Shown in pieces: positions 8,865 through 26,058 of a stretch of 64,000 nucleotides of DNA; position 1 is the first letter of the stretch; each line of letters starts with the position of its first letter. The notes beneath the pieces are model-generated. The model was not told the origin of the DNA and did not search any database. It was given only the letters and a program-made list of their open reading frames with translations. Both the position numbers and the translations under genes were made by a program. Origin of the DNA: Candidatus Latescibacterota bacterium (GTDB lineage Bacteria; Latescibacterota; UBA2968; UBA8231); the NCBI GenBank assembly GCA_965204725.1, contig OZ242005.1:4768001-4832000 (forward strand), written 5' to 3'.

Positions 8865-9067
8865 GGTCTTTTCCGGGAGGTTAATGGAGCGCGGCATAAC
8901 CGCATTGGGATTGGCTGAGGGTAGTATAGGCGGGTTGACGGCTTCGCTCAAGCTAGTTGACCCTTTGGACGCATGTTGATACGTTTGGGCGAACACCGCA
9001 AACCAACGCGGGGTTAAACGAGGCGGTTCGATCGCGCTCAATCCACCCTAAACCGATGCGAGGTCTT

Positions 9068-10849: not shown

Positions 10850-10896
10850 CCGCGGCCGCAGCATAGTACCGGGGTCGCTCGTTGGTCATGGGCTTA

Positions 10897-10966
10897 CTAC
10901 ACGACACCAGTCTCTAAGGATCGAGGGCATCTTGCCCTCGTCGAGGGCGGGACGCCCTCGATCCCG
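10897..10966 (+). repeat. Family A palindromic mini-element (REP doublet with left TIR), copy 1
   Basis: TTA|CTACACGACACC...GGATCGAGGGCATCTTGCCCTCGTCGAGGGCGGGACGCCCTCGATCCCG; same core at ~14724, ~20193, ~37246 and ~38911. Confidence 0.85.
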
Positions 10967-10998
10967 CTTTGCTGAGAACGCACTTCGACGGAGTGGGA

Positions 10999-11874: not shown

Positions 11875-11923
11875 GTCCTACCTCCTTGGGATTAAGGATT
11901 GGTTTGAGATTGTCAGAGCCAAT

Positions 11924-14410
11924 CTACTCGCTCTGCAAGCCTTTGGTGATCGGCTCGCGCATCAGGGCTACCGTGTGCAACAACACCCCCGCACCGGCCG
12001 GGGCTGCCGCGGCCAAACTGCCCAGCGCGAGGAACAGCCATCCATCGTCTGTCCGTTGTGCGAACTGGCTCAACCATTCTTCGACGCCGAGGTGCGCCAA
12101 GGGGCCGATCAGCAGACACCCGGCCAGCACCAGCCACAGCAGCCGCCGCGCCAACAGACCCGCCACATGCCGACTCTCGGCACCCAACGTCCGCATGAAG
12201 GCGATATTGCGCCGCTGATGGGACACCGTAATCGCCGTCAGGCCGTAGGCTCCCAGCGCAGCAATGAACACAGCCAAGAGGGCGGACCCGACAGCGAGCC
12301 ATAGCCAGATTCGGTCGTCTCGGTAGTACGCGGCCAAGTGGTCTTCGAGCCGCGACAGGTGCAGGATTTCGTCGGGGGCTATGGCTTGCCATGTGCGCTC
12401 GATGTGCTCAAGGGCCTCGTTGCCGGCCTTGGGGGCAAGGCGCACGAAGAACAAGTCATGGTCTCTTATATTGGAGTCGAGTAAGAGCACACCCGGTTCG
12501 ACCTCGCTTTTCAGCGAGTAGAAGTAATAGTCGCTCAGCACCCCTACGACGCGCCCCTCGCCATTGGGCATCTGACGGGCTAGGCGTCTCGTAAACTGCA
12601 CCACTTGGCCGATGGGTTGGTCCCAACCTGCTTGGGCGACAAAGGTCTCATTGACAAGAATGCCCGCTTGATCCGGCCCCAGATTGGCACCCTGTACGAG
12701 GTGGAGGCCGAGCGTCTCGACAAAACTCGAGTCCACTCGTAGGCACTGCGCCCTGATCTTGCGATCTTTACCGGGCAGTATCGTCTCTTCCATCCCTCGC
12801 GTTGGCGTTCTCTTCTCTTTCTGTAAAAAATGATCCTTACTCATGGCCACCGACTTGATTCCACTATGGGCGAGCAGCCCCTCTTTGAGCCGATGCCGGA
12901 ACATCTTGTCGATGCCCTCCCTCAACGCATCCGTGTCAAGCATCAGCACATCGTCCGGCACGAAGCCCAGATCAAATGCCTGTAGGTAGTGTAGTTGCCG
13001 AGCCATCACCAAACTCATGCCCGCCAGCCCAGCGCAGGCGGCAAACTGCATCACCACTAACGCACCGCCTAGTGCTGACCGACGACTGAGGAGGCTGGTG
13101 CGACCCACCGCCTCGCTCGGGTTGATCCGCGCCAAAATTAGGCCGGGATAGGCGGCGGCCAACAGACTGGTGAGTACCAACAGGACCAGCCCACCCACGA
13201 TGAAGGAGGGGGCAAGGTAGTCGAGACGCAGGTCTTGACCCAACATTGCATTGAACGCGGGCAGCAGCACCTCGCCGAGAGCCAAGCCGACAGCCAGCGA
13301 CACGCCACACACTACCACCGTCTCGATCCAGAATTGCACCGGCAGTTGCCGACGGGTGGCTCCCAAGGCGACGCGCACCCCCACTTCTAACCCGCGCGTA
13401 CTCGCCCGCGCCGTGGCGAGGTTGACGTAGTTGACCACGGCTACGGCCAGCAGAAGCACAGCAATGGCCAAGACGATATAGGTCGCCAGCGGGTCGCGCG
13501 GCGGGGCGATGCCATCGTATCCGTCCCATTGGATCACGTCGGTGCCCGTGTGCAGCGTCGATAGGGGTTGCAACACCATGCTAAAGTCTGGATTGAGGGG
13601 AGCCAGCTTTTTGCTGTAATCGGAGGAGTTTTCAATGTACAACTGCCGTATCAAGGCTTCGGTCTGCTTCAAATCGCCCTCGTTGGCGTCCTTCAGCAGG
13701 ACGAATAGAATGCAGTTCCGGTCCCAGAAGTCATCAATCCAGCGCCACAGACGCTCCGAATTGTGAAAGGGCAATAGGATATTCAACTGAATCGACGAGT
13801 TCGCCGGCGGCGGGGCGACCACGGCTTGGATGGTGTATTCCTTGCGCTCGTGTTGGGGCCACCCCACATCGATCCGTATTACCTGCCCCACCGCCGGCTC
13901 GTCGCCGAAGTAGCGGCGGGCGAAATCGCGGCTGACCACGACGCCGTCTTTTGCCTGTAGAGCCGTCCGCGGGTCGCCCGCGTCGAGGGGGAAAGAAAAC
14001 ACTTCAAAGAAATTCTCATCAACCAGCAGAAACGGCTCGTCGTTCCACCTATCGCCTATCCGCACGCGGATGCGCCGACCTTCCAACGACGACCTGTGCC
14101 CAGAAGCCAGCCGGACTGTTTCCTCGACCTGAGGCACGGCGTTCTGGATCGCCTCGGCCATGGCGACCGGGGCATAATCCCCGAACTTCACACGGTCATA
14201 GCCCGGGATTTTGAGGTCGAACACCACCCGGTATAGGTGCGCCCCGTTCTCGTGGAAGCTATCGTAGCTCCACTCGCGTGACACCAGCGCATGCGCCAAC
14301 ACGCAGAAGCCAAACGCCAGCGACAGACTGCACACCTCAATGAAGCCCAGCAGCTTGTGCCGGCGCAGGATGCGCACGGCGGTCCGTAAGTAATTACCAA
14401 GCATTCTCAT
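11924..14410 (-). CDS. MacB/FtsX-like ABC transporter permease (double FtsX)
   Basis: MLGNYLRTAVR, NYVNLATARASTRGLEVGVRVALGA, second FtsX domain IAFMRTLGA; 828 aa. Confidence 0.88.
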   Translation of the reverse strand: MRMLGNYLRTAVRILRRHKLLGFIEVCSLSLAFGFCVLAHALVSREWSYDSFHENGAHLYRVVFDLKIPGYDRVKFGDYAPVAMAEAIQNAVPQVEETVRLASGHRSSLEGRRIRVRIGDRWNDEPFLLVDENFFEVFSFPLDAGDPRTALQAKDGVVVSRDFARRYFGDEPAVGQVIRIDVGWPQHERKEYTIQAVVAPPPANSSIQLNILLPFHNSERLWRWIDDFWDRNCILFVLLKDANEGDLKQTEALIRQLYIENSSDYSKKLAPLNPDFSMVLQPLSTLHTGTDVIQWDGYDGIAPPRDPLATYIVLAIAVLLLAVAVVNYVNLATARASTRGLEVGVRVALGATRRQLPVQFWIETVVVCGVSLAVGLALGEVLLPAFNAMLGQDLRLDYLAPSFIVGGLVLLVLTSLLAAAYPGLILARINPSEAVGRTSLLSRRSALGGALVVMQFAACAGLAGMSLVMARQLHYLQAFDLGFVPDDVLMLDTDALREGIDKMFRHRLKEGLLAHSGIKSVAMSKDHFLQKEKRTPTRGMEETILPGKDRKIRAQCLRVDSSFVETLGLHLVQGANLGPDQAGILVNETFVAQAGWDQPIGQVVQFTRRLARQMPNGEGRVVGVLSDYYFYSLKSEVEPGVLLLDSNIRDHDLFFVRLAPKAGNEALEHIERTWQAIAPDEILHLSRLEDHLAAYYRDDRIWLWLAVGSALLAVFIAALGAYGLTAITVSHQRRNIAFMRTLGAESRHVAGLLARRLLWLVLAGCLLIGPLAHLGVEEWLSQFAQRTDDGWLFLALGSLAAAAPAGAGVLLHTVALMREPITKGLQSE

Positions 14411-14471
14411 GGCTCCGGCTCCTTCCGTGTATCCACTTTCCTTACTAGCGTCACGGCCTTATCTCCGATAT

Positions 14472-14487
14472 AGCAAGATGTATGCCA
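14472..14487 (-). promoter_or_regulatory. Sigma54 (-24/-12) promoter for the permease gene
   Basis: Minus strand TGGCATACATCTTGCT matches TGGCAC-N5-TTGCW with exact spacing, ~60 nt upstream of the ATG. Confidence 0.8.
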
Positions 14488-14553
14488 TACTCTATATATC
14501 ACTGAAAAACAACGAGATACATTGAATCGGGCCTCTTGGCTGTGCTGGGGCGA

Positions 14554-14592
14554 GTGTCCGCTGGTGATACAGAGGTGTCCGCTGGCGATACA
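14554..14592. promoter_or_regulatory. Tandem enhancer (UAS) sites for an NtrC-family activator
   Basis: GTGTCCGCTGGTGATACA (14554-14571) and GTGTCCGCTGGCGATACA (14575-14592), 21 bp apart, each TGT-N11-ACA, upstream of the sigma54 promoter. Confidence 0.7.
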
Positions 14593-14694
14593 CTTTTCTA
14601 CGGCGGTCAGCCCCTAGCCACAGGCAGGAAGATGCGTAACGTCTGTTATTGATTGGGGAGTAAGGACTAGTTATATCTCTAATCAGATAGCTTA

Positions 14695-14774
14695 CTACAC
14701 GACGCCAGCGACCCGCTTTCCTAAGGATCGAGGGCATCTTGCCCTCGTCGAGGGCGGGACGCCCTCGACCCCGG
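14695..14774 (+). repeat. Family A palindromic mini-element, copy 2
   Basis: TTA|CTACACGACGCC...AAGGATCGAGGGCATCTTGCCCTCGTCGAGGGCGGGACGCCCTCGACCCCGG. Confidence 0.85.
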
Positions 14775-14791
14775 ACGCAGTTTGGAGAATT

Positions 14792-14917
14792 ATGAGCAAA
14801 ACATGGCCGGTACAGGACGCGACGGCGCGGTTCAGCGCACTCCTTAAAACGAGCCTTGCCGAAGGGCCGCAAAGGTCCGCCGGCGGCACACTCGAAAGCG
14901 GCTCCCATGCCTGTTGA
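14792..14917 (+). pseudogene. Phd/YefM antitoxin N-terminal remnant
   Basis: GGAG SD then MSKTWPVQDATARFSALLKTSLAEGPQ, matching the Phd N-terminal pattern (WxVQDAKARFSELL...EGPQ); similarity is then lost and it stops at 41 aa. Confidence 0.65.
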
Positions 14918-16283
14918 AGCCGACCACATCCTCGTCGTTGACGACGATCCCGATGTCCTCGTCGCGGCCCGCTTGCTCCTCAAGCAGCAGGGCTACCAAG
15001 TCCGCACCGAGACCGATCCCCAAGCCATTCCGCCCATCCTCAAGCAGGACGCGCCCGCAGTCGTCCTCCTCGACATGAACTTCACCCAAGAGGCGACCAG
15101 CGGTCAGGAGGGGTTCTACTGGCTCCAGCAAATTAGCGAGCTGGCCCCAACCACCGTCGTCTTGCTAATCACCGCGTATGGCGATGTCGAGATGGCCGTG
15201 CGCGCCATCAAGGAAGGGGCGGTTGATTTCGTGCTCAAACCTTGGCAGAACGAAAAGTTGCTCGCCACCCTGTCCGCCGCCCTAGCACTACACCGCTCGC
15301 GCCGGGAAGCCCATCGCCTACACGCCCGCCAGCAACGGCTGGCCGCCGACCTCGACCAGCCCTTTGGCGACATCATTGGCCAAGCCCCGGTTCTAAAGGA
15401 GGTTTTCCAAGCCGTCGCCAAGGTGGCCGCGACCGACGCCAGCGTCCTCATCCTCGGCGAGAATGGCACGGGCAAGGAACTAGTGGCGCGCGCCATTCAC
15501 CGCCGCTCGCAACGCGCCGGCGAAGTCTTCATCGCCGTCGATATGGGCTCCCTGAGCGAAACCCTGTTTGAGAGCGAGCTCTTCGGCCACGTCAAAGGGG
15601 CCTTCACCGACGCCCGCAGCGACCGCGCCGGTCGCTTTGAAATCGCCTCCGGGGGCACCCTGTTCCTCGACGAGATCGGCAACCTGCCCCTGCCCTTGCA
15701 GGTCAAGCTGCTCGCGGCCCTGCAAAACCAGCAGGTCGTCCGCGTCGGCGCCAATCAGCCCGTGCAAGTAGATGTGCGCCTTATCTGCGCCACCAACCAG
15801 CCCATCCACGAAATGGCCGCGGTCGGCACCTTCCGCCAAGACCTCCTCTACCGCATCAACACCGTGGAAATCCCCCTGCCTCCCCTGCGCGAGCGCCCCG
15901 AGGACATCGCGCTGTTGGCCCGGCACTTCCTCGACCTGTACCGGACCAAGTACCGCAAGGCCCTGACTGACCTGACCGCCGAGGCGTTGGCCCACTTGCG
16001 CGCGTACGCTTGGCCGGGCAATGTGCGGGAATTGCAGCACGCGGTGGAACGCGCCGTCATTATGAGCGAGGGGAACCGCCTGACCGCGAGCGATTTTCCC
16101 CTGATGGCGGCTCCATCCCCTCGGGAAGAGGTCGCCTTTGACAGCTACAACCTCGAAGACGTCGAGCACGAGGTCATCGCCCGGGTGCTACGCAAGCACC
16201 AAGGCAACGTCAGCCAAACCGCCCGGGAACTCGGCCTCACCCGCACGGCCCTCTATCGCCGCATGGAGAAACATGGCCTTTAG
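14907..16283 (+). CDS. Sigma54-dependent response regulator (NtrC family: REC-AAA-Fis HTH)
   Basis: ILVVDDD, LLDMNF, GENGTGKE, ESELFGHVKGAFTDA, WPGNVREL, C-terminal Fis HTH. Confidence 0.93.
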   Translation: MPVEADHILVVDDDPDVLVAARLLLKQQGYQVRTETDPQAIPPILKQDAPAVVLLDMNFTQEATSGQEGFYWLQQISELAPTTVVLLITAYGDVEMAVRAIKEGAVDFVLKPWQNEKLLATLSAALALHRSRREAHRLHARQQRLAADLDQPFGDIIGQAPVLKEVFQAVAKVAATDASVLILGENGTGKELVARAIHRRSQRAGEVFIAVDMGSLSETLFESELFGHVKGAFTDARSDRAGRFEIASGGTLFLDEIGNLPLPLQVKLLAALQNQQVVRVGANQPVQVDVRLICATNQPIHEMAAVGTFRQDLLYRINTVEIPLPPLRERPEDIALLARHFLDLYRTKYRKALTDLTAEALAHLRAYAWPGNVRELQHAVERAVIMSEGNRLTASDFPLMAAPSPREEVAFDSYNLEDVEHEVIARVLRKHQGNVSQTARELGLTRTALYRRMEKHGL

Positions 16284-16295
16284 AAGCCATTGCTC

Positions 16296-16571
16296 TCAGC
16301 CCTGCTCGTGGGCTTCTTTATACGCTTTCAGAACCGCATTGATCCGCGTCTGATAGCCTGCGCCTTGGTGCCGGAACCATTCTAGTACATCCTTATCCAG
16401 ACGCAGGGTAATCTGCGCCTTGCCCGGTGCCGGCTTCAAGCCCTTTTGCACGAGGGCCTGAGCGAACATTTCTGGCGACAGCGGCGGAACATCGGAGTAA
16501 TCAATGGCCTCATCCTCCATCGCGTCCAGCCGCTTGAGTGTGCGCTTGATAGATTCTTTGTTCGCGTTCAT
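16296..16571 (-). CDS. brnA: BrnA antitoxin family protein
   Basis: IDYSDVPPL...KAQITLRLDKDVLEWFRHQGAGYQTRINAVL. Confidence 0.88.
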   Translation of the reverse strand: MNANKESIKRTLKRLDAMEDEAIDYSDVPPLSPEMFAQALVQKGLKPAPGKAQITLRLDKDVLEWFRHQGAGYQTRINAVLKAYKEAHEQG

Positions 16572-16803
16572 TAGCTTTCCTCATCGAGATAATTCTCGTA
16601 ATAGCACCTCGCTGGGTATGTGCGACGACAACGACACGTCCCCGTAGGGAACCGAGGGTGATGAAACGCCGCTCGCCATAGTCTTGGCGCTCGTCGGGGA
16701 TGGTCACCGTGATGTCGGCAAAGACAGCGGCGGCGACCTCAAAGTCGATCCCGTGTTTGGCAAAATTGGTTTGCCGCTTGAGCTCATCCCACTCGAATCG
16801 CAT
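16510..16803 (-). CDS. brnT: BrnT family toxin
   Basis: MRFEWDELKRQTNFAKHGIDF...DYGERRFITLG...RIISMRKANERE. Confidence 0.9.
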   Translation of the reverse strand: MRFEWDELKRQTNFAKHGIDFEVAAAVFADITVTIPDERQDYGERRFITLGSLRGRVVVVAHTQRGAITRIISMRKANEREQRIYQAHTQAAGRDGG

Positions 16804-16885
16804 AAATAAATGTAACTACAATTCATAGCTACGAAAAAGGGGACCAGCCGTTTTCCGGTCCATCTCGTTGCAGGGACATTTCATT

Positions 16886-18223
16886 ATGAGCTTTAAGCAT
16901 CGTCTAATGCAAGGGTATCGCGCCTTTCGCACGCGGGTCGTGGTGCGCGTCGCCCTCCTCGGCGTCACCTTGTGGCTGCTGTTCTACGCAATAGAAGAGG
17001 CGAACCATCCGGCCATCGTCGTCGTCGTCCTCGCCCTGCTCTATCAGACCTACGCCCTCGTTCACTACGTCGAGCGCACCAACCGCGACTTGGCGCGCTT
17101 TTTGGCCGCCATCCGCTACGCCGATTTCTCGCAGAACTTTGTCTCCGGCGGCCTCGGCACCTCTTTTGACGAACTCAAGACCGCGTTCAATGAGGTCCTC
17201 GACGCCTTTCGCCAAGCGCGAGCCGAAAAGGAGGAACAAGCGCACTACCTGCAAACGGTCGTGCAACACATTGGCATCGGCTTGATTGTGTTCGACAGCG
17301 ACGGCGAGGTGTCGCTGATCAACAACGCGGCCAAGCGTCTTTTGGGAGTGCCTCGCTTGGGCCACATCGCCGACCTCAACCGCGTCAATCCCATCCTAAC
17401 CACTACCCTGCAAAACCTCGGCCCCCAAGGCCGCGACTTGGTGGGCTTTGCCGAGATTCAGCTCGCCCTCCACGCATCGGTGTTCCGCCTGAGCCACCGC
17501 GAGCACACCCTAGTCGCCCTCCACGATATTGGCCCGGACCTCGACGAAAAGGAAATGGAGGCTTGGCAAAACCTAATCCGCGTACTCACCCACGAGATCA
17601 TGAATTCCATCACTCCGATCGCTTCGCTGGCCGCGACCGCGGACGGAATGCTAAAAGAGGACATCCTCGACGCCGAGGCCACCGAAGACATCCGCAACGC
17701 AGTGAGCACGATCCAACGCCGCAGCGAGGGCCTGCTGCACTTTGTCGAAGCCTACCGCGGCCTCACCCGCGTACCAGCGCCCTCCTTTGAGATTGTCTCA
17801 GTGGCCGACCTGTTCGCCCGAGTGGAGCAGCTAATGCGGCCCCAGTTCGTCAAGTCCGCTGTCGAATTGCGGATTCAAGTTGATCCGCCCAGCCTCGAAT
17901 TGACCGCCGACCCCGAGCAAGTCGAGCAGATCCTCATCAATCTGCTGAGCAATGCCCGCGAAGCCACCGCCCACCGCGCTAGGGCCGGTGTTGACCTGAC
18001 CGCTCATCTAGCGCACGACAAGGTCGTCGTCGAGGTCGCGGACAATGGGTCGGGGATCGTCGAAGAAGCCCTCGGCAAGGTTTTCATTCCCTTCTTCACG
18101 ACCAAGCGCGACGGCTCCGGCATCGGGCTGAGCCTGTGCCGCCAGATCATGCGGCTCCACCGCGGGTCCATCTCTGTCCGCTCGGAGCCGGGAGTGCGGA
18201 CGGTGTTTGCGTTGCGATTTTGA
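16886..18223 (+). CDS. Sensor histidine kinase (NtrY-like, PAS plus HATPase)
   Basis: Two N-terminal TM segments; LTHEIMNSITPI H-box, QILINLLSNA, DNGSGI, FFTTKRDGSGIGL. Confidence 0.9.
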   Translation: MSFKHRLMQGYRAFRTRVVVRVALLGVTLWLLFYAIEEANHPAIVVVVLALLYQTYALVHYVERTNRDLARFLAAIRYADFSQNFVSGGLGTSFDELKTAFNEVLDAFRQARAEKEEQAHYLQTVVQHIGIGLIVFDSDGEVSLINNAAKRLLGVPRLGHIADLNRVNPILTTTLQNLGPQGRDLVGFAEIQLALHASVFRLSHREHTLVALHDIGPDLDEKEMEAWQNLIRVLTHEIMNSITPIASLAATADGMLKEDILDAEATEDIRNAVSTIQRRSEGLLHFVEAYRGLTRVPAPSFEIVSVADLFARVEQLMRPQFVKSAVELRIQVDPPSLELTADPEQVEQILINLLSNAREATAHRARAGVDLTAHLAHDKVVVEVADNGSGIVEEALGKVFIPFFTTKRDGSGIGLSLCRQIMRLHRGSISVRSEPGVRTVFALRF

Positions 18224-18245
18224 GCGGATCAGCGAGGGGAGACCG

Positions 18246-19256
18246 CTAGAATGCAACGGCGAGTTGCACCGTGGTCGTGCTGACTTGCTGGTTTGCGTAA
18301 TCCTCGTCTCGCACCCATTCGAGGGCTGGCGAGAACCACGTTGCCAATTCCACCGAGAGCCCGGCGAGCAACCGCCGCGTGGGCAGTTTTAGCGCCCGTG
18401 CTTCTTCCGTGCCCTGATAGCCGACGACTACCGTTGCCTCCCTGCCCGCAAGGCGGACAGCGCAAGCCGCTTCAAGCAACCAACTCGACGGTTGAGCGCC
18501 GCGACCGGCATACTCCACTTCGTGGGCTACAAAGTGCCCCAGCGAAGCTAGGTATTCGCCAGTCAGCGCTGCGTTTGCGTAACGCAGCTCAGTGCGGGCT
18601 GTCCAGCCGGGCACGCTATGGCGGCCCCGCGTATCGGCAATTACCTCTTGGAGAGCACCTGAAACACCGATGTCGCTGATATAGGACAGGTTTAGACCGA
18701 ACTCGGCCTCACCGCGCTCCAGCAAATAGCCAATTGCAGCACCGTAACCACCATTTTGGTCCTCATCGCCGTAGAAGCCGAAGATAGACCCGTGCAATCC
18801 GCCAGACGACAACCCCAATTGCAAGGCAAGCTCATTTGTTTCGCCGAGTTGGAGCGTCAGCGGATCGGAGATCAACGCGGGAGGCCAATTCGCAAATGGG
18901 ACGTATTGCTGACCAGCGGAGAAAAACCACGAGCCTTCCGGCGGCCCAATGGTCAGGCTGGCACTGTCGAGCGCGACTTGCTCGGCTTCCTCCAGCCCAA
19001 TGTCCTCTTCCTCGTACAGCAGGGTGGCCCCGGCCCCAATCCAGTCGTTTAGTTCCGCCTCGACCACAAGCTCGGCTTGCCCCACGCCGACCCCCGCGGC
19101 GCGGTCTCCTTCGTCCAGGTGCCGATAGACCCCTTCGAGTTGGACCGTGCCGCCGATCTCCCACCCAACTTGCTCAGGCTGCACGGCCTCGGCCAGCCCC
19201 AGCCCGTGCCCGACCCATAAAACCGAGCCGACGAGGATGGAGCTTTTCCCCTTCAT
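18246..19256 (-). CDS. LbtU-family outer-membrane porin
   Basis: Signal peptide; ATLLYEEE, GQQYVPF, ISDPLTLQLGET, C-terminal TVQLAVAF beta-signal. Confidence 0.7.
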   Translation of the reverse strand: MKGKSSILVGSVLWVGHGLGLAEAVQPEQVGWEIGGTVQLEGVYRHLDEGDRAAGVGVGQAELVVEAELNDWIGAGATLLYEEEDIGLEEAEQVALDSASLTIGPPEGSWFFSAGQQYVPFANWPPALISDPLTLQLGETNELALQLGLSSGGLHGSIFGFYGDEDQNGGYGAAIGYLLERGEAEFGLNLSYISDIGVSGALQEVIADTRGRHSVPGWTARTELRYANAALTGEYLASLGHFVAHEVEYAGRGAQPSSWLLEAACAVRLAGREATVVVGYQGTEEARALKLPTRRLLAGLSVELATWFSPALEWVRDEDYANQQVSTTTVQLAVAF

Positions 19257-19267
19257 CGCTGGCTTGC

Positions 19268-20110
19268 TCAATCAAACAAAGCGAGCCAATCGTCCACGCT
19301 TTGGGCCACCGACTCGGGATAAGCTCGGCTGCGGGCGATAAAGCCGGGGACGCCGTCGCGGCCGCTGGGCTGAGCCGGGTCGCTGTAGCGCAGGTCGAGG
19401 CTCCAGCGGATGTGGTCGGAGTGGTTGGGGATGGAGCGGTGGATGGTTTTGTGCTGGATGAGCAGGACGCTGCCGACTTTGACCGGGCAGCTAACCTGCT
19501 CGCCGGGGGGCAGGTCCTGATTGGTGATGCCTTTGAAGTTGGCCCCCGGTCCCATGCCGTGCTCGTGGCCCATGAGTGGGACGCGGTGGCTGCCGGCAAT
19601 GACTTCCATACAGCCGTTGTCAAGAGTGGCATCGACCAAGGGGATCCAAAAATTGACCATGAAGGTCTCTTCGGCGTCAGGCTGCAAATAGCCCAAGTCT
19701 TGGTGCCAAGGCACCACCGTGGAGTCTTGGTTGGGCAATTTGGCGCGCAGGTTGAATTGCGGGTGGGCCATTATTTCGGGGCCGATCACCGATTCGACAA
19801 GGTCGAGCAGCGCCGGTTGGGTCAAAATGGCGAACATGCCCTCGGTTTTGAGCTTGCCGTTGACTTGGCGCAACAGCGGGGCGGGGTCGGCCAACTGGGC
19901 GTGGATGGGGATCAGGCGCTTGGCAAAGGGCAGGGCCGCGTGCAGGTCGGACAGTTCGCCGGCCGCGTGGGCCTGCTGGGCCGCGGCATCGACAAGCGCG
20001 TCGATTTCGGCGATGAGGCGGTCAAAGACCGCGGGGTCGAGGACATCCTCGACGAGGAGATAGCCTTCGGTGCGGTAGAAGTCGAGTTGATCGGAGGTGA
20101 GGCCGCTCAT
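19268..20110 (-). CDS. Phytanoyl-CoA dioxygenase (PhyH) family Fe/2OG enzyme
   Basis: LTSDQLDFYRTEGYL, VPWHQD, NGCMEVIAGSH, IHRSIPN...RWSLDLRY. Confidence 0.88.
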   Translation of the reverse strand: MSGLTSDQLDFYRTEGYLLVEDVLDPAVFDRLIAEIDALVDAAAQQAHAAGELSDLHAALPFAKRLIPIHAQLADPAPLLRQVNGKLKTEGMFAILTQPALLDLVESVIGPEIMAHPQFNLRAKLPNQDSTVVPWHQDLGYLQPDAEETFMVNFWIPLVDATLDNGCMEVIAGSHRVPLMGHEHGMGPGANFKGITNQDLPPGEQVSCPVKVGSVLLIQHKTIHRSIPNHSDHIRWSLDLRYSDPAQPSGRDGVPGFIARSRAYPESVAQSVDDWLALFD

Positions 20111-20158
20111 CGGAGTTGTCCTTTGGCTGGGGGTGGATTGAGGTTGGGTTAATGCTAA

Positions 20159-20269
20159 GTACACGACACCAGCTTTAGTTCCCGATGAATCCGGGATCGA
20201 GGGCGTCCCGCCCTCGACGAGGGCAAGATGCCCTCGATCCTTGGAAGGCTGGCGGCAGGTGTCGTGTAG
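20159..20269 (-). mobile_element. Family A mini-element, complete copy (111 bp MITE-like, REP doublet inside)
   Basis: TAA|GTACACGACACC...GGTGTCGTGTAG|TAA: 12 bp TIR with 1 mismatch and TAA direct repeats on both sides. Confidence 0.8.
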
Positions 20270-20320
20270 TAAGGGGTTAATGTACAGTTTTACCGAGGGG
20301 GTCAGCAAGCGCGGCCCGGC

Positions 20321-20348
20321 TTGACGGCATCGGCGTTCCTCGTATCTT
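20321..20348 (+). promoter_or_regulatory. Putative sigma70 promoter of the aspS leader
   Basis: TTGACG (20321) N16 TATCTT (20343); implies a start site just before ATG 20358. Confidence 0.55.
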
Positions 20349-20357
20349 TAGCCCACT

Positions 20358-20423
20358 ATGATGACCCGTCAGAACAACCGCACGCCCAATAATAATCCAC
20401 TCGCCCCATTGCGCGTGTTCTGA
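20358..20423 (+). CDS. Asn-rich leader peptide 1 (MMTRQNNRTPNNNPLAPLRVF)
   Basis: 21 codons with 5 Asn (AAC AAC, AAT AAT AAT) in a GC-rich context; followed by antiterminator and terminator. Confidence 0.75.
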   Translation: MMTRQNNRTPNNNPLAPLRVF

Positions 20424-20445
20424 CGACTAACCCCAACCAAATCTC

Positions 20446-20487
20446 AAACCCGTCGCGAACACGCATCGCGGCGGGTTTTCTGTTTTT
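20446..20487 (+). terminator. Attenuator terminator 1
   Basis: AAACCCGTCGCGA/TCGCGGCGGGTTT stem then TCTGTTTTT; overlaps a competing helix GCGTGTTC(20413-20)/GAACACGC(20457-64). Confidence 0.8.
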
Positions 20488-20500
20488 AGGAGCGATTGCA

Positions 20501-20587
20501 ATGACATTCCAGCACCCGGCACGCGCCCTTTCGCATAACAACAACGACAATAACCCCGCCATTCGGGCTCGATGGCGTTGGCCGTGA
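20501..20587 (+). CDS. Asn/Asp-rich leader peptide 2 (MTFQHPARALSHNNNDNNPAIRARWRWP)
   Basis: AGGAG SD at 20488-92; run AAC AAC AAC GAC AAT AAC at 20537-20554. Confidence 0.8.
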   Translation: MTFQHPARALSHNNNDNNPAIRARWRWP

Positions 20588-20607
20588 CCGGATTCCACCC
20601 TCACCCC

Positions 20608-20643
20608 AACCCGCCGTTGAGCCTCGTGCCGACGGCGGTTTTT
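20608..20643 (+). terminator. Attenuator terminator 2
   Basis: CCGCCGTTG/CGACGGCGG stem then TTTTT; competing helix GGCTCGATGGCG(20566-77)/CGCCGTTGAGCC(20612-23). Confidence 0.8.
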
Positions 20644-20668
20644 CATGTACAGCCAACGGGAGGCTATC

Positions 20669-22429
20669 ATGCACCGCTATCGCACACACACCTGTGGCGA
20701 ACTCCGCCAGCACCACGCCGGCCAGACCACTCGCCTGAGCGGCTGGATACACCGCCGAAGGGATCACGGGGGCATCCTGTTTCTAGATCTGCGCGACCAC
20801 TACGGCCTCACCCAACTCGTGCTCGCGCCGGGAAACGACGTTGCGGCCACCGCAGCCAAGGTCCCCCGCGAATCCGTAATCCGCGTCGAGGGTGACGTGC
20901 GAAAGCGGTCGCCTGAGACCATCAACCGGGCGATGGAGACTGGCGAGATTGAAATCGCTGTCCGCGAATTGGCAGTGCTCTCGCCGGCCGAGCCGCTCCC
21001 CTTTGCCGTGGCCGAAGATCCCGAAGTGGGGGAGAGCACCCGGTTGTCCTATCGCTTCTTGGACCTGCGCCGAGCCGGGCTGCACCGCCGCATTCAGCTT
21101 CGCTCGGAGGTGATCGCCAGCATCAGACGACGCATGACGGGCATGGGTTTTGCCGAATTTCAGACGCCCATTCTCACCAGCAGTTCGCCCGAGGGCGCAC
21201 GCGATTACCTCGTACCGAGCCGGCTCTATCCCGGCGAGTTCTACGCGCTACCGCAAGCCCCTCAGCAGTTCAAGCAGCTCCTGATGGTGTCCGGCTTCGA
21301 CCGCTATTTCCAGATCGCGCCCTGCTTCCGCGACGAAGACGCCCGTGCCGACCGCTCCCCCGGCGAGTTCTACCAACTCGACCTCGAGATGGCCTTTGTC
21401 GAGCAGGAGGATGTCTTCGCGGTGATCGAGGAACTCTTTTATGGTCTGTTTCGCGAGTTCACTGCTTGGGAAGTGACCGCACCGCCGTTCCCGCGTCTTT
21501 CCCACGCCGACGCCATGCTGCGGTTCGGTACGGACAAACCAGACCTGCGCTTAGGACTCGAAATTCAGGACCTCTCCGACATATTCACGGAATCCTCGTT
21601 CAGGTTGTTCAGGGACATCGTGGCAGCCGGAGGAGTCGTCCGCGCCCTGTGCGTTCCCGGTCTAGAGGCGCAGCCGCGCTCGTTTTTTGGCAGCCTCGAA
21701 GCGTTCGTCCAAGAAGCAGGCGGCAAGGGGCTGGCGTACCTCATCAACGGAGTGCAACCCACAGGCTCAATCGCCGCAGCTTTGGAGCAGAGTGTACGCA
21801 ACCGCATTATCGAGGCGTGTGCCGCCGCTCCGGGGTCCGCTATTTTCTTCCTCGCCGGGCCGCCCGCCGAGGCAGCGGCCTTGGCGGGACGGTTGCGCCT
21901 GCATCTGGCGGACCGGCTCGATTTGCGTCGGGAGGGTTGCTATGAATTCTGCTGGGTCGTCGATTTTCCCATGTACGAATGGGATGCGGACCGCGCTGGT
22001 GTAGCCTTTGCACACAACCCGTTCTCCATGCCGCAGGGCGGTATGGCGGCCTTGGCGGACCAGCCGCCGCTGGCGATCAAGGCGTATCAGTACGACATCG
22101 TATGCAACGGCCTCGAACTGTCGAGCGGCGCCATCCGCAATCACCGGCCGGACATCATGTACAAGGCGTTTGAGCTGGCCGGGCACTCGCGGCGGGAAGT
22201 GGATCGCAGATTCGGGGGCATGATCCGCGCCTTTCGCTACGGCGCTCCACCGCACGGCGGCATCGCGCCCGGCATTGACCGCATCGTCATGCTGATAGCG
22301 GACGAACCGAACATCCGGGAGGTTATCGCCTTCCCGATGAGCCAGAACGCACAGGATCCGCTCATGGGCGCGCCGAGCAAGGTGTCGCCGGAGCAGTTGC
22401 GGGAGTTGCACCTAGCAGTCTGGGAGTGA
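20669..22429 (+). CDS. aspS: Aspartate--tRNA ligase, probably non-discriminating (Asp/Asn)
   Basis: YRTHTCGELR, RRRDHGG, PEGARDYLVPSR, QIAPCFRDED, GAPPHGGIAPGIDR; GGGAGG SD. Confidence 0.97.
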   Translation: MHRYRTHTCGELRQHHAGQTTRLSGWIHRRRDHGGILFLDLRDHYGLTQLVLAPGNDVAATAAKVPRESVIRVEGDVRKRSPETINRAMETGEIEIAVRELAVLSPAEPLPFAVAEDPEVGESTRLSYRFLDLRRAGLHRRIQLRSEVIASIRRRMTGMGFAEFQTPILTSSSPEGARDYLVPSRLYPGEFYALPQAPQQFKQLLMVSGFDRYFQIAPCFRDEDARADRSPGEFYQLDLEMAFVEQEDVFAVIEELFYGLFREFTAWEVTAPPFPRLSHADAMLRFGTDKPDLRLGLEIQDLSDIFTESSFRLFRDIVAAGGVVRALCVPGLEAQPRSFFGSLEAFVQEAGGKGLAYLINGVQPTGSIAAALEQSVRNRIIEACAAAPGSAIFFLAGPPAEAAALAGRLRLHLADRLDLRREGCYEFCWVVDFPMYEWDADRAGVAFAHNPFSMPQGGMAALADQPPLAIKAYQYDIVCNGLELSSGAIRNHRPDIMYKAFELAGHSRREVDRRFGGMIRAFRYGAPPHGGIAPGIDRIVMLIADEPNIREVIAFPMSQNAQDPLMGAPSKVSPEQLRELHLAVWE

Positions 22430-22452
22430 AAGTTGCTGGCCGATTCCGGTCA

Positions 22453-22586
22453 GAAGCGGTCTGCAAACTCTGGTGGTCGTCCCTTGGGTCTAAACGATCC
22501 CGGCTGGATTCCCGCCCCGTGTCGGGGCACGGGGTGACGTTCTTTTTACGGGAATGACGCCCCAAGGTGAGGTTTCAGACCGCTTC
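22453..22586 (+). mobile_element. Family B mini-element (MITE-like), copy 1
   Basis: TCA|GAAGCGGTCTG...CAGACCGCTTC|TCA: TIR plus 3 bp duplication; internal palindrome GGATTCCCGCCCCGTGTCGGGGCACGGGG...CGGGAATGAC. Confidence 0.82.
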
Positions 22587-22720
22587 TCAGGGAGCCCCGA
22601 GTCTTATCTTGCTGACCAATTCCGTTTGGGCGTTATTGGAAAAGTATAGCTCATCGCCTTGGCCGAAAATAAAATAAACAACCCGACCATGTCCCAATAC
22701 AGAGAGGCTGGAAGCACGCT

Positions 22721-24754
22721 ATGAAAGACGAGTTTTTCGAGCAGGACGAGGGACGGCAATCAGCGTTCATGCCTGACCACAGCTACTTTTCCAACCTGAT
22801 CTGGCATATCGCCGACCTGCTGCGCGGCCCTTACCGGCCGCCCCAGTACGAGCGCGTCATGCTGCCTATGACTGTGCTGCGGCGGTTCGACTGCGTACTC
22901 GCTCGGACCAAGCCCGATGTTCTGGCCGCGTACGATCTCTGGGGCGACAGGCTCCACGGCGATGCACTCGACATCAGACTGAACAGAGCCGCCGGCCAGC
23001 GCTTCCACAACCACTCGCCCCTCGACTTCGAGAAGCTCAAGGGCGATCCAGACAACATCGCCCCGCACCTCGTTAGCTACATCCACGGCTTTTCGGCCAA
23101 CGTGCGCCGCATCTTCGAGTACTTTGAATTTGAGGCGGAAATCGAGAAGATGCGCGAGGCCAATCTCCTGTACCTCGTCGTCTCAAAATTCTGCGACGTG
23201 GACCTACACCCCGCTAGCGTTCCGAACGAGCAGATGGGACACATCTTTGAGAACCTCATCCGCCGCTTCAACGAACTAGCCAACGAGACCGCCGGCGACC
23301 ACTTCACGCCGCGCGAGGTCATCCGGCTGATGGTGAGCATCCTCTTCATTCACGACGACGAACTGCTCGCCACGCCCGGAACCGTGCGTAAGCTCCTCGA
23401 CCCGGCTTGCGGCACCGGCGGCATGTTGGCCGAGGCGCAAAACTACTTGCGAGACCACCACAGTGCCGCCCGGCTCTACGTCTATGGGCAGGACTACAAC
23501 AATCGCGCCTTTGCTACCGCAGCCTCCGACATGCTGATGAAGCAGGTTGACCACAACGGCATCGGCGACAACGTCCGCTTTGGCGACAGCTTCACAGAAG
23601 ACCAATTTGAGGACGAGACCTTCGACTACTTTCTCACCAATCCGCCCTTCGGCGTGGACTGGAAGAAGCAGAAGCGGGCGATCCAAGATGAGCACGACAA
23701 GCTCGGCTTTGAGGGTCGCTTTGGTGCTGGGCTATCGCGCGTGAACGACGGCTCGCTGCTTTTCCTGCAACACATAATCCACAAGTTCGAGCCGGTGCGC
23801 CCGGACGAGCGTAAGCATGGCTCGCGCTTGGCTATCGTATTCAGCGGCTCGCCGCTCTTTACCGGCGGTGCTGGCTCCGGCGAGAGCAACATTCGCAAGT
23901 GGATCATTGAGAACGACTGGCTCGAAGCGATCATCGCCTTGCCGGAGCAGATGTTCTACAACACTGGCATCGGCACCTATGTCTGGATCGTCACCAATCG
24001 CAAAGAGGAGCAGCGGCGGGGGAAAATTCAGCTTCTCGACGCCCGCGACTTGTGGACCGCGGGCGGGAGCGCAGACAACAAACGCAGCCTTGGCGACAAG
24101 CGCCGCCACATCGCCGCAGAGCAGAGCGCGGAGATCGTTGCGCTATATGGCCGCTTTGAGGACGGTGACCGCTCCAAGATTTTCGACAACGACGACTTTG
24201 GTTACACGCGCGTGACCGTGGAGCGCCCCCTGCGCTTGCGTTACCAGATGACCATAGAAGACAAGGCCCGTTTTCTCGATGCCTGCCCGTACCTGCTCGA
24301 CGACGTGCAGGCCATTGACAAGGAGTTGGGACGCGAGCCATCGTCCGACTGGAATGCGACGTGGGAGCGCATCGCGGCTCTCCTGCATGAGCACCAATCG
24401 CGCTGGAAGAAGGTGGAACAGAAGCTCTTCCGAGATGTGTTCACAGAGAAGGATGCGGAGGCCGAGCCGGTCAGGAAGGATGGCCGAGAGAACAGCTACG
24501 AGCCCGACCCTGAACTGCGCGGCTTCGAGAATGTGCCGCTCAAGGACGACGTTGACGCCTATTTCGAGCGCGAGGTGCGCCCTCACGTCCCCGAGGCTTG
24601 GATGGACCGCGACAAGGACAAAATCGGTTACGAGATCAACTTCAACCGCCACTTCTACGAGTACACGCCGCCGCGCCCGTTGGAAGAGATTGACGGGGAT
24701 TTGAAGAAGGCGGAGGAGAAGATCGTGCGGCTACTGCGGGAGGTGGTGGGGTGA
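22721..24754 (+). CDS. hsdM: Type I R-M methyltransferase subunit
   Basis: IWHIADLLRG, AGDHFTPREVI, DPACGTGGML, TNPPFG, GYEINFNRHFY. Confidence 0.95.
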   Translation: MKDEFFEQDEGRQSAFMPDHSYFSNLIWHIADLLRGPYRPPQYERVMLPMTVLRRFDCVLARTKPDVLAAYDLWGDRLHGDALDIRLNRAAGQRFHNHSPLDFEKLKGDPDNIAPHLVSYIHGFSANVRRIFEYFEFEAEIEKMREANLLYLVVSKFCDVDLHPASVPNEQMGHIFENLIRRFNELANETAGDHFTPREVIRLMVSILFIHDDELLATPGTVRKLLDPACGTGGMLAEAQNYLRDHHSAARLYVYGQDYNNRAFATAASDMLMKQVDHNGIGDNVRFGDSFTEDQFEDETFDYFLTNPPFGVDWKKQKRAIQDEHDKLGFEGRFGAGLSRVNDGSLLFLQHIIHKFEPVRPDERKHGSRLAIVFSGSPLFTGGAGSGESNIRKWIIENDWLEAIIALPEQMFYNTGIGTYVWIVTNRKEEQRRGKIQLLDARDLWTAGGSADNKRSLGDKRRHIAAEQSAEIVALYGRFEDGDRSKIFDNDDFGYTRVTVERPLRLRYQMTIEDKARFLDACPYLLDDVQAIDKELGREPSSDWNATWERIAALLHEHQSRWKKVEQKLFRDVFTEKDAEAEPVRKDGRENSYEPDPELRGFENVPLKDDVDAYFEREVRPHVPEAWMDRDKDKIGYEINFNRHFYEYTPPRPLEEIDGDLKKAEEKIVRLLREVVG

Positions 24755-26058
24755 GCCACCTTGCTTGGGTCAACTCACTGCCTGAGTCTTGGGAGGTGAA
24801 GCCGCTTCGGGCGACGACTGATTATGTGGTAAGTAACGTCGATAAATTGTCGGTTGACCACGAAATACCGGTTCGATTGTGCAATTACACGGACGTTTAC
24901 AACAACGATTTCATTTCTATGAGCCTCGACTTCATGCAGGCAACAGCGACCGAAGACGAGATCGAGAAATTCGGCTTACAAGTCGGAGATGTTGTCATCA
25001 CGAAGGATTCAGAGTCATGGGATGACATAGGTGTCCCCGCACTTGTCCGGGAGACAGCCGACGACCTCGTGTGCGGTTATCACCTCGCGCTTCTTCGTCC
25101 CCGTCGCCACCAGTTGGCAGGTGCATTCCTGCTCCGGTGCCTCCAAGCAAAGCCGATATGTGTCCAACTGGAACTTGCTGCGAATGGAGTGACTCGCTTT
25201 GGGCTAGCGAAGTCTGAGATAGGGGGTGTCACGTTGCCGGTGCCGCCGCTTTCAATCCAGTACGCCATCGCCGACTACCTTGACCGCGAGACGGCGCGGC
25301 TGGATGCACTGGTGGCAGAAAAGGAGCAACTGCTGGAACTGTTGGCCGAGAAACGCCGTGCGCTCATCACCCGCGCCGTCACCCGCGGCCTCGACCCAAA
25401 CGTCCCGCTCCGCGACTCCGGTGTTTCATGGCTCGGCGAGATTCCGACGCATTGGAAGGTGATCCTATTGCGCTTTGCCTGCTGCTCAATTGAGACGGGT
25501 GGAACACCGTCTATCGATTACGTGGATGATACGAGCGAAACCAGTGTGGACTGGTTTACTCCTGGCGATTTTGGAAGCGATCTAGTTCTCCGCGAGTCGT
25601 CACGCAGACTCGCTCAAGAGGCGGTGTCATCGGGGAAGGCTAAGCTATTCCCGGCTGGTTCTGTGTTTGTTGTAAGTATAGGAGCGACACTCGGGAAGGT
25701 GGGAATCATCGAAGCACCAGCCTCTGCCAATCAACAGATCAACGTCATGATTCCGCGAGGTACTGTTGAGCCACATTTCCTTGCTCATGTTCTTTGGATA
25801 CTTGGGGACGTAATGGGTGCAATGGCTAACAGTGCAACATTACCGATTCTGAATCAGCAAAGAATGGGAGAAATACGTGTTCCGGTTCCTCCAGTTTCCG
25901 AGCAGCGAGAGATCGTGTCTGCTATCGCAAGCGAGACAAAAAGGATCGAGTGCGTTTGGATAGCTGCCGAACACACGATTGCACTTCTCAAGGAACGCCG
26001 CTCTGCCCTCATCGCGGCTGCCGTGACCGGGCAGATTAACGTAGGGAGCGCGACATGA
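24751..26058 (+). CDS. hsdS: Type I R-M specificity subunit
   Basis: LPESWEVKPL, two TRDs each followed by PVPP..Q..I helices, RDSGVSWLGEIP, ALIAAAVTGQI. Confidence 0.93.
   Translation: MSHLAWVNSLPESWEVKPLRATTDYVVSNVDKLSVDHEIPVRLCNYTDVYNNDFISMSLDFMQATATEDEIEKFGLQVGDVVITKDSESWDDIGVPALVRETADDLVCGYHLALLRPRRHQLAGAFLLRCLQAKPICVQLELAANGVTRFGLAKSEIGGVTLPVPPLSIQYAIADYLDRETARLDALVAEKEQLLELLAEKRRALITRAVTRGLDPNVPLRDSGVSWLGEIPTHWKVILLRFACCSIETGGTPSIDYVDDTSETSVDWFTPGDFGSDLVLRESSRRLAQEAVSSGKAKLFPAGSVFVVSIGATLGKVGIIEAPASANQQINVMIPRGTVEPHFLAHVLWILGDVMGAMANSATLPILNQQRMGEIRVPVPPVSEQREIVSAIASETKRIECVWIAAEHTIALLKERRSALIAAAVTGQINVGSAT

Follow-up and report, generated by a model that had tools for sequence, protein, structure and literature searches.

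Results

A tandem leader lies upstream of a second aspS gene

Positions 20321 to 20668 of the 64,000-nucleotide stretch of Candidatus Latescibacterota DNA analyzed here (the window) form the gap between a divergent gene on the minus strand (19268–20308) and a 586-codon gene for aspartyl-tRNA synthetase (AspRS), aspS, with a conserved ATG at 20669. A first-pass annotation had placed in this gap two complete attenuators in series, each made up of a leader open reading frame (ORF) with asparagine (Asn) codons, an antiterminator, and a terminator, and had them control aspS. On inspection of the window sequence, every listed element was found at its position, and the pair of complete units ahead of aspS was borne out. 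The gene is an accessory one and not the housekeeping aspS. The genome (5.43 Mb, 2 contigs) carries two bacterial-type aspS genes, the window copy and one at C1:1815514, whose products are 44% identical; the second copy that the annotation had raised as a possibility thus exists. Hereafter, the window copy and its product are called aspS2 and AspRS2, and the product of the other, core aspS is called AspRS1. From the sequence features described below, we consider it likely that the leader works by ribosome-stalling attenuation and would induce AspRS2 when Asn-tRNA is scarce.

The first unit (Table 1) begins with ORF1, in which Asn codons stand as a pair (AAC AAC, 20373–20378) and as a triplet (AAT AAT AAT, 20388–20396). 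A single promoter-like match was found in 19800–21200 (shuffled sequences gave 0.3 on average), and ORF1 would be leaderless or nearly so, because the −10-like hexamer TATCTT ends 9 nt 5' of its ATG. Region 1 pairs with region 2 in a helix of −19.1 kcal/mol, which RNAalifold recovered unaided and in which 94.7% of the cells in the alignment of relatives are paired. Region 2 can pair alternatively with region 3 to form the antiterminator (8+5 bp, −17.8 kcal/mol, 98.4% of cells paired), and the TGA stop of ORF1 (20421–20423) falls within the 5' arm of this helix. Region 3 with region 4 forms terminator 1 (−21.5 kcal/mol, 94.3% of cells paired, 9 of 13 pairs invariant), whose stem is followed by TTTTCTGTTTTT. 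As free RNA, unit 1 folded into helix 1:2 plus the terminator, and the terminator also formed when a ribosome footprint was masked at the stop codon.

The second unit is built on the same plan. ORF2 has the run AAC AAC AAC GAC AAT AAC at 20537–20554 and is preceded by a Shine–Dalgarno (SD) sequence, AGGAG, 8 nt ahead of its ATG; both the SD and the ATG are conserved. Its antiterminator 2:3 is the stronger of the two (12+5 bp, −31.5 kcal/mol, 99.2% of cells paired). Both antiterminators fold as first annotated, although the helices are longer than had been claimed. Region 2 has two other potential partners, namely 20557–20562, with which 20572–20577 forms a short 1:2 hairpin (−13.7 kcal/mol) that could act as an anti-antiterminator, and 20516–20528, at long range; on the alignment, RNAalifold pairs region 2 at long range with the 5' part of ORF2. 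Terminator 2 (−18.7 kcal/mol) ends in the U-tract TTTTT at 20639–20643 and was overlooked by a simple scanner because its stem has a bulge. In relatives, 100% of its cells are paired, and the changes are only among G-C, G-U, and A-U. Unit 2 formed the antiterminator both as free RNA and with a ribosome masked at the Asn run, and it formed the terminator with a ribosome masked at the stop. In both units, therefore, masking at the stop codon gave the terminator, and in both the stop codon lies inside the 5' arm of the antiterminator.

Table 1 Features of the aspS2 locus, in window coordinates
Feature	Position	Strand	Basis or remark
Promoter-like site, TTGACG-16 nt-TATCTT	20321–20348	+	Consensus match
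Leader ORF1, 21 codons, no SD, MMTRQNNRTPNNNPLAPLRVF	20358–20423	+	ORF reading
Unit 1 region 1, with the first two Asn codons	20367–20385	+	Pairs with region 2, CGUCAGAAC with GUUCUGACG
Unit 1 region 2, antiterminator 5' arm over the last codons and stop of ORF1	20413–20425	+	Fold
Unit 1 region 3, antiterminator 3' side	20451–20464	+	Within terminator 1
Unit 1 region 4	20466–20478	+	3' arm of terminator 1
Terminator 1, 13-bp stem (20446–20458/20466–20478) and U-tract (20476–20487)	20446–20487	+	Terminator scan, folding
SD of ORF2, AGGAG	20488–20492	+	Sequence; aligned relatives
Leader ORF2, 28 codons, MTFQHPARALSHNNNDNNPAIRARWRWP	20501–20587	+	ORF reading; stop 20585–20587
Unit 2 region 2, antiterminator 5' arm	20565–20581	+	Pairs with 20606–20624
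Unit 2 region 3 (20606–20624) and terminator 2	20606–20643	+	Stems 20611–20622/20628–20638
SD of aspS2, GGGAGG	20658–20663	+	Sequence
aspS2, bacterial-type AspRS, 586 aa	20669–22429	+	Homology; accessory second copy
10-bp GC-rich hairpin and T-rich tail	22513–22546	+	84 nt past the aspS2 stop

The pattern AAYAAYAAY occurs three times in the window, both strands counted (mean of shuffles, 1.13), and two of the three runs are within ORF1 and ORF2. Asn accounts for 5 of 21 codons in ORF1 and 5 of 28 in ORF2, with binomial P values of 3e-4 and 1.3e-3 at the genomic frequency of 2.95% (a post hoc calculation; frequency from long open frames), and the leader is more stably folded than any of its 100 shuffles (z = −3.6). 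The two units had been described as unrelated in sequence, and this holds: 29 of 500 shuffles reached their best local alignment score, and homology between unit 1 and unit 2 was rejected. An Rfam 15 cmscan of 19800–21200 with E values up to 10 returned CrfA (E = 0.6, terminator hairpin only) and Xoo5 (E = 9.9), with no match to the T-box or to the curated His, Leu, Thr, Trp, and similar leader families.

The leader is conserved and travels with aspS2

We examined 20 AspRS2 loci (L001–L017 and L047–L049) in Candidatus Latescibacterota metagenome-assembled genomes (MAGs). Unit 1 is present in all 19 loci with a readable upstream region (L016 is cut by a contig end), whereas unit 2 is present in 14 of the 20. 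The remaining six (L002, L003, L006, L013, L017, and L049) carry just unit 1, which makes the tandem arrangement optional; of the two-stage gate that had been proposed as a way to sharpen the response, both units are real, and the doubling is not obligatory. In the single-unit loci, the SD after terminator 1 directly serves aspS, and GGAGGCTA is conserved in relatives 5' of the aspS2 ATG. Across the examined loci, the Asn runs and the stems are kept, as the first-pass annotation would predict. In L010 (genome G005), unrelated sequence stands in place of the promoter and of the first half of ORF1, and regions 2 to 4 are kept; a new ATG-started ORF there runs through three Asn codons and ends in a TAG codon 2 nt short of region 2. 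This locus and L013 (genome G007) are natural variants that could be useful for reporter tests.

A BLAST search with the leader against 31 genomes of the genus found it in 20, 14 with two units and 6 with unit 1 only, and at one place per genome except for two contig-end pieces in G014. It lies directly 5' of aspS2 in the fetched loci, and elsewhere its coordinates abut aspS2 wherever that gene was located (the location was not checked in the leader-bearing genomes G047 and G049). Because the leader stays with aspS2 while the cassette occurs in five upstream and five downstream flank contexts, it evidently travels with the gene. The public sequencing runs in which the stretch occurs carry sponge or marine metagenome as their label, and contigs from three of them are near-identical to it.

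Beyond these loci, nothing similar was recovered by the searches made. Among 76 aspS2-like loci in genomes outside Latescibacterota, 2 had an ORF that fitted the Asn-run pattern, but without likeness to the leaders; this pattern is not fully sensitive, as the genuine leader of L049 escaped it and was found by alignment. Of 80 metagenome loci, the 75 with at least 150 nt upstream were scanned, and 5 of them had some short ORF with at least 3 Asn codons, none leader-like by their peptides (terminators were not checked); by the same peptide comparison, no leader was found at the loci with 69% and 65% AspRS2 identity. The regions upstream of asnS, gatB, and the core aspS showed no Asn-rich leader of this type, and a genome-wide list of short ORFs containing NNN gave 17 scattered hits with no regulon pattern. 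ORF2 is missing from that list because its open frame extends upstream past the 60-codon limit.

Reading frames and structured segments are preserved

Both ORFs vary among relatives as translated sequences would. The ORF1 ATG reads through to the same TGA in 18 of 19 loci despite lengths of 20, 21, 22, 23, 24, 28, and 30 codons, and ORF2 has 28–30 codons in all 13 complete loci, so that every length change in an ORF is a multiple of three. The untranslated spacer 1, between ORF1 and terminator 1, instead measures 25, 26, 28, 31, 32, 33, or 34 nt. The Asn codons are maintained (3–6 in ORF1 and 4–6 in ORF2), whereas Asp codons number 0–1 and 1–2, respectively. Over the genome as a whole, Asp outnumbers Asn twofold (Asn:Asp of 0.49:1), but in the leaders Asn is in excess, with ratios of 88:16 for ORF1 and 57:21 for ORF2. 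AAT and AAC replace one another within the runs, and 18-nt insertions in L048 and L049 bring extra Asn codons. In ORF1, 60% of the Asn codons are AAT, the rarer codon (31% genome-wide).

Mean pairwise identity per segment was 0.96 for region 2 of unit 1 and for regions 1–2 of unit 2 and 0.93–0.94 for the two terminators, against 0.78 at fourfold sites of aspS2, 0.75 in spacer 1, and 0.74–0.79 in the N-terminal parts of the ORFs. Judged by this difference, the structured parts are under purifying selection, whereas the rest of the leader is drifting. The C-termini of the peptides, PLxPLRVF and NNPAIRARWRWP, are conserved, and the codons concerned are the very ones that form regions 1 and 2 of the RNA switches. 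Overall, 94–100% of cells pair in the helices, and nearly all pairs are invariant. A metatranscriptome contig (267 nt, depth 3.6, approximately 93% alike) spans 20456–20711, across terminator 2 into aspS. It is a weak hint, as the library may contain DNA, contigs cannot show transcript ends, and the RNA run consists of three small contigs, so that stretches they leave uncovered carry no information.

AspRS2 is an accessory enzyme related to alphaproteobacterial AspRS

All 41 relatives have an aspS match (E ≤ 0.001), and among the matches listed the core copy is 43–47% identical to AspRS2. AspRS2 itself has orthologues (86–100% identical) in only part of the genus, namely, in 17 of 25 genomes. 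In the complete genome G022, only fragments of aspS2 are left at C1:4024545–4025208, comprising a stretch with 83% identity over residues 384–585 interrupted by two TGA stops and a 43-residue piece, which indicates recent loss of the accessory gene; no leader DNA was found in this genome by BLAST with the leader.

AspRS2 matches bacterial AspRS chains over residues 2–584 (E values of 1e-155 to 1e-131), but whole-protein similarity to solved AspRS structures did not sort it as discriminating or non-discriminating. Its motif HRRRDHGG contains the His that is also found in the chains of the Pseudomonas aeruginosa and mycobacterial Asp/Asn ligases in the Protein Data Bank and that is Leu in the Thermus thermophilus tRNA(Asp) ligase chain. 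This His had been put forward as a sign of a non-discriminating enzyme; it is present in AspRS2, but AspRS1 has it as well, so it does not separate the two copies. Work by Bernard and colleagues in 2006 reportedly established His31 (in P. aeruginosa AspRS) and Gly83 as the positions that mark specificity. We take the His of HRRRDHGG to be the P. aeruginosa His31 position and the Gly of an RPEG motif to be the second marker.

Outside the genus, AspRS2 is closest (55–61% identical) to the AspRS of Sphingomonadales, Rhodospirillaceae, and a few other groups. None of the 5 such alphaproteobacterial genomes searched had an asnS match over the cut-off, the asnS model hitting only their aspS, and their AspRS must therefore serve tRNA-Asn. 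Because its nearest outside relatives are enzymes of alphaproteobacteria without asparaginyl-tRNA synthetase (AsnRS), and because an attenuator serving an enzyme specific for Asp alone would be expected to abound in codons for Asp and not for Asn, we favor, with modest confidence, the view that AspRS2 is non-discriminating. AspRS1 may be non-discriminating too, in which case AspRS2 would be an inducible booster and not the only entry to the pathway.

Asparagine is apparently made on tRNA

Profile searches of the genome gave scores of 465.8 bits for asnS (over the cut-off), 697.1 for glnS, 558.5 for gatB, and 621.5 for gatA; there was no match to asnA, and the best match to the asnB model reached 61 bits, far from its cut-off of 267.1. 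Since the genome is 94% complete by marker count, asnA and asnB are probably, though not certainly, absent. The first-pass annotation had expected GatCAB to be present and asnS to be absent. The former agrees with the presence of gatA and gatB (gatC was not searched), whereas asnS is present and it is asnA and asnB that are missing. The single tRNA-Asn has U1-A72 and the tRNA-Asp has G1-C72. The cited passages of PMC4206432 give U1-A72 in tRNA-Asn as a feature of the GatCAB-using genomes surveyed there, and those of PMC4206432 and PMC2330236 describe Thermus, Deinococcus, and Bdellovibrio, in which a non-discriminating AspRS with GatCAB is the only route to Asn. With AsnRS, glutaminyl-tRNA synthetase (GlnRS), GatA, GatB, and a U1-A72 tRNA-Asn but neither AsnA nor AsnB, this bacterium must therefore make asparagine on tRNA.

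Across the genus, gatB and asnS were found in all 25 genomes, two of the asnS matches being truncated and below the cut-off. By contrast, asnB exceeded its cut-off only in G014 (weakly, 288 bits), G015, G016, and G017, the last three of which are without aspS2. Because the genomes are kin, this pattern is suggestive only. In G015, G017, and G024, all without aspS2, asnS scored 515–548 bits compared with approximately 470 bits in the other members, which suggests a different AsnRS lineage within the genus.

Discussion

A model for control of AspRS2 by Asn-tRNA

The data show directly how the leader is laid out, that it is conserved, that its frames are maintained, and which genes the genome contains. 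From these we infer where transcription starts, that ORF1 is translated without a leader, that ribosomes stall on the Asn codons, that a kinetic choice is made between pairings 2:3 and 3:4, and that transcripts terminate at the U-tracts. The leader would consist of two independent transcription attenuators in series, both sensing Asn-tRNA(Asn) and, to a lesser extent, Asp-tRNA(Asp). Transcription would begin a few bases 5' of the ORF1 AUG. A ribosome that reached the UGA of ORF1 would cover region 2 and so allow hairpin 3:4, and the polymerase would stop at 20476–20487; a ribosome stalled at the Asn codons would leave region 2 free to pair with region 3, and the polymerase would continue. The identical decision would be repeated at ORF2 and terminator 2, so that only transcripts that had passed both stops would encode AspRS2 and the gating by the two units would be multiplicative. 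AspRS2, probably non-discriminating, would then feed Asp-tRNA(Asn) to GatCAB, the only recognizable route to Asn in the genome. When not translated, the two units should differ. Untranslated unit 1 should terminate because its free-RNA fold is 1:2 plus 3:4, and untranslated unit 2 alone should read through because the antiterminator is its most stable fold in the window sequence; the predicted defaults in that sequence are thus off for unit 1 and on for unit 2.

Alternative explanations

Two alternatives accept the attenuators but not the signal, and we regard each as improbable. In the first, a trans-acting factor (a protein, an uncharged tRNA, or a small molecule) flips real attenuators in which the ORFs and their Asn codons are incidental. 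The near-invariance of the stems speaks for RNA elements only and does not tell what switches them, ORF1 is without an SD, and the C-terminal halves of the peptides overlap conserved RNA structure, so that their conservation need not mean translation. An incidental ORF, however, would not be expected to keep its frame through length changes in threes beside an unconstrained spacer, to hold its Asn runs through AAT/AAC changes and gain Asn codons in the 18-nt insertions of L048 and L049, or, in the case of ORF2, to conserve both SD and ATG; moreover, the stop codons lie inside the antiterminator 5' arms in two unrelated units, and Rfam gave no match to a T-box or another known leader (best E = 0.6, on the terminator hairpin only).

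The second alternative, no more probable than the first, is that the attenuators report general translation capacity, such as any starvation, ribosome shortage, or lost coupling, rather than Asn-tRNA specifically. A stall anywhere in the ORFs 5' of region 2 would favor the antiterminators, codons for Asp, His, Arg, and Thr are present in the leaders as well, and untranslated unit 2 would read through by default. Against this, Asn is the sole residue enriched in both unrelated peptides and is kept in all loci, whereas the other N-terminal positions vary freely, and the product of the regulated gene sits on the Asn-tRNA pathway.

A non-functional relic, acquired recently together with aspS2 and conserved through short divergence and hitch-hiking, is less probable still. 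The gene is indeed accessory, with its 17 of 25 genomes and the pseudogene remnant in G022, and has at least five flanking contexts; the leader-bearing loci are all 81–91% identical in AspRS2, and the peptide comparison found no leader at 69% or 65% identity. Hitch-hiking would nevertheless not be expected to preserve reading frames or to hold the structural segments at 0.93–0.96 while fourfold sites, spacer 1, and the N-terminal parts of the ORFs fell to 0.78, 0.75, and 0.74–0.79. Finally, the least probable reading is that the ORFs encode small peptides with their own function, with hairpins that merely terminate small genes. The conserved C-termini (PLxPLRVF and NNPAIRARWRWP) speak for it, but they are encoded exactly where the RNA switches have regions 1 and 2, the N-terminal parts drift at the neutral rate, the unrelated peptides have only the Asn run in common, and the ORFs always lie directly 5' of aspS2 on the same strand.

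Several observations weigh against control of a non-discriminating AspRS2 by ribosome stalling at Asn codons. In unit 1, the minimum-energy fold keeps the terminator when a ribosome is masked at the Asn codons, so that under such masking the antiterminator appeared in unit 2 but not in unit 1; antitermination in unit 1 therefore rests on kinetic order, with 2:3 forming before region 4 is transcribed. The trp attenuator likewise leans on kinetic folding order. ORF1 lacks an SD, and its translation depends on a putative leaderless start. The promoter is a 9 of 12 match to the consensus only, in a phylum whose promoters are unstudied; TTGAC is retained in 11 of 13 aligned two-unit loci, L010 and L011 having other sequence there, and the alignment of single-unit loci shows the promoter stretch deleted in L013. 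The stem covariation that had been anticipated found no significant support in any of five helices. A single compensatory pair, U-A to C-G in antiterminator 1 of L013, was reached by 85 of 500 shuffles, L006 has the same region 2 change uncompensated as a C-A mismatch, and the other helices show no compensatory pairs, being invariant or changed on one side among G-C, G-U, and A-U. Covariation is not significant because the stems hardly vary, and this conservation reflects in part shared ancestry, the loci being close kin (AspRS2 81–91% identical).

Two further points of this kind concern the enzyme and its pathway. AspRS2 has RSPETIN and thus lacks the RPEG glycine present in AspRS1 (RPEGMVN) and in the Asp/Asn ligase chains, in agreement with the initial remark that the second marker was not obvious. 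The alphaproteobacterial relatives likewise lack it (e.g., RTAETIN), sharing this loop type with AspRS2, and because 5 of 5 of their genomes are without asnS, the Gly marker is seemingly not universal. In addition, G004, G009, and G022, which are complete or near-complete, have neither aspS2 nor asnB, and the core enzyme may therefore already supply Asp-tRNA(Asn).

Relation to known systems

Leader-peptide attenuators on synthetase genes are known from Escherichia coli pheST, and candidates have been reported for trpS2 in Streptomyces avermitilis and leuS in S. avermitilis and Streptomyces coelicolor (PMC1262725, in the passages cited). The aspS2 leader shares with them a short codon-rich ORF, mutually exclusive antiterminator and terminator, and an aminoacyl-tRNA synthetase gene as target, and S. 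avermitilis trpS2, like aspS2, is a second copy. As far as that source describes the earlier cases, the present one differs in having Asn codons ahead of an AspRS gene, two serial units, and a first ORF without an SD; it also differs in its Latescibacterota host and in the lack of a match to any Rfam leader family. With Asn codons in front of AspRS, the leader matches the end product of a two-step route, Asn-tRNA(Asn), and not the amino acid that the enzyme activates.

The closest counterpart in function, controlling the same pathway by another device, has been described in Clostridium acetobutylicum, where an Asn T-box controls tRNA-dependent amidation genes (Saad et al. 2012, J Biol Chem 287:20382, as cited in PMC4206432). 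To the extent of that account, both systems would let supply through the Asn-tRNA pathway control an extra AspRS beside AsnRS by terminator attenuation, but the T-box RNA binds uncharged tRNA directly, whereas here the sensor would be a ribosome translating Asn codons. Moreover, aspS2 alone appears to be controlled, as gatB and asnS lack such a leader and no T-box was detected. In gene content, the genome resembles T. thermophilus and Deinococcus radiodurans, which have a second AspRS, and Bdellovibrio bacteriovorus, which has a single non-discriminating AspRS; according to the portions of PMC4206432 and PMC2330236 cited, all combine AsnRS, GlnRS, and GatCAB with U1-A72 and without AsnA or AsnB. 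The extra AspRS here, however, is of the bacterial type, related to alphaproteobacterial enzymes, and accessory, not archaeal-type as in the Thermus and Deinococcus comparison, and the cited portions of the two sources mention no leader-peptide control.

The two leader ORFs of Salmonella mgtCBR are said to sense different signals. Here, in contrast, the Asn-codon signal is common to both ORFs, and each is followed by a separate canonical intrinsic terminator. What the two leaders have in common is a pair of short ORFs with alternative stem-loops, and for mgtCBR the passages cited describe tandem attenuators in which each ORF is thought to govern stem-loops and transcription into the coding region (PMC3641672).

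In the literature searched, from which subscription journals and supplementary files were out of reach, we found no Asn leader peptide and no aspS attenuator, except that PMC2659441 lists, in the part cited, a motif in the 5' untranslated region of Shewanella aspS as a 'tRNA synthetase leader' without detail; the cited part of Naville and Gautheret 2010 (PMC2965389) mentions neither aspS nor asparagine. The new elements are thus the amino acid sensed, the mismatch between an Asp enzyme and an Asn leader, serial unrelated units for one signal, a one- or two-unit polymorphism, and the phylum. Whether all parts of the interpretation hold together, namely, a first Asn leader-peptide attenuator, stalling feedback by Asn-tRNA(Asn), an acquired non-discriminating AspRS as inducible committed step, and a modular leader, is in our estimation an evenly balanced matter.

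If they do, this would be the first tRNA-dependent Asn pathway in which ribosome stalling provides feedback from the end product, Asn-tRNA(Asn), and a horizontally acquired, alphaproteobacterial-like non-discriminating AspRS would provide the inducible committed step of Asn synthesis in sponge-associated Latescibacterota. The leader would be modular, with a default-off leaderless unit and, in some alleles, a default-on SD-driven unit, the alleles tuning basal level and steepness. Leader codon content (Asn much above Asp) would also become a sequence-only predictor of an AspRS that acts on tRNA-Asn. The cited part of PMC2330236 treats as an open point how indirect, tRNA-dependent routes to amide aminoacyl-tRNAs tie into metabolism and regulation. 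For one lineage, the locus offers a concrete and testable answer, in which the amount of the enzyme that initiates Asn synthesis on tRNA would depend on Asn-tRNA supply. Classical attenuation would thereby gain a further amino acid and reach a candidate phylum that is represented here by MAG records alone, and the natural one- and two-unit alleles give a chance to test what a tandem attenuator adds. Leader codon bias could likewise serve to annotate the physiological substrate of an ambiguous synthetase. The view of symbiont metabolism would also be revised, as these bacteria lack AsnA and AsnB yet are probably not asparagine auxotrophs.

Other features of the window and genome

The GC-rich hairpin downstream of aspS2 is likely the end of the transcription unit. 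It belongs to an element, GGATTCCCGCCCCGTGTCGGGGCACGGGGTGACG (window 22480–22546), that recurs approximately 100 nt upstream of asnS (G000:C1, 1694740); the element looks like a dispersed repeat of the repetitive extragenic palindromic type and may double as a terminator. A loose terminator scan of the window returned about as many sites as shuffles (22 versus 20.1, 23 versus 19.6, and 32 versus 22.0) and therefore cannot show that intrinsic terminators are common there, although a few long-stem examples occur, such as 45565–45531 and 37807–37777.

Just 5' of the promoter-like site, window 20200–20275 contains nested inverted repeats (ATCGAGGGC...GCCCTCGA). Its mean word depth in two metagenome runs is approximately 9,000–25,000, compared with approximately 15–40 for the flanking leader, and it is therefore an element present in very many copies, either in those communities or in this genome. 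Among the tRNA genes, ARAGORN called a tRNA-Glu(ttc) of 101 nt at G000:C1:3649118–3649218, far longer than the other tRNAs, which may reflect an intron or a false call, and the genome also has a selenocysteine tRNA, tRNA-SeC(tca). Directly 3' of aspS2, window 22721–26058 holds large ORFs of 677 and 435 aa, which, from their translations judged by eye, resemble type I restriction-modification proteins, namely, the methylase and specificity subunits.

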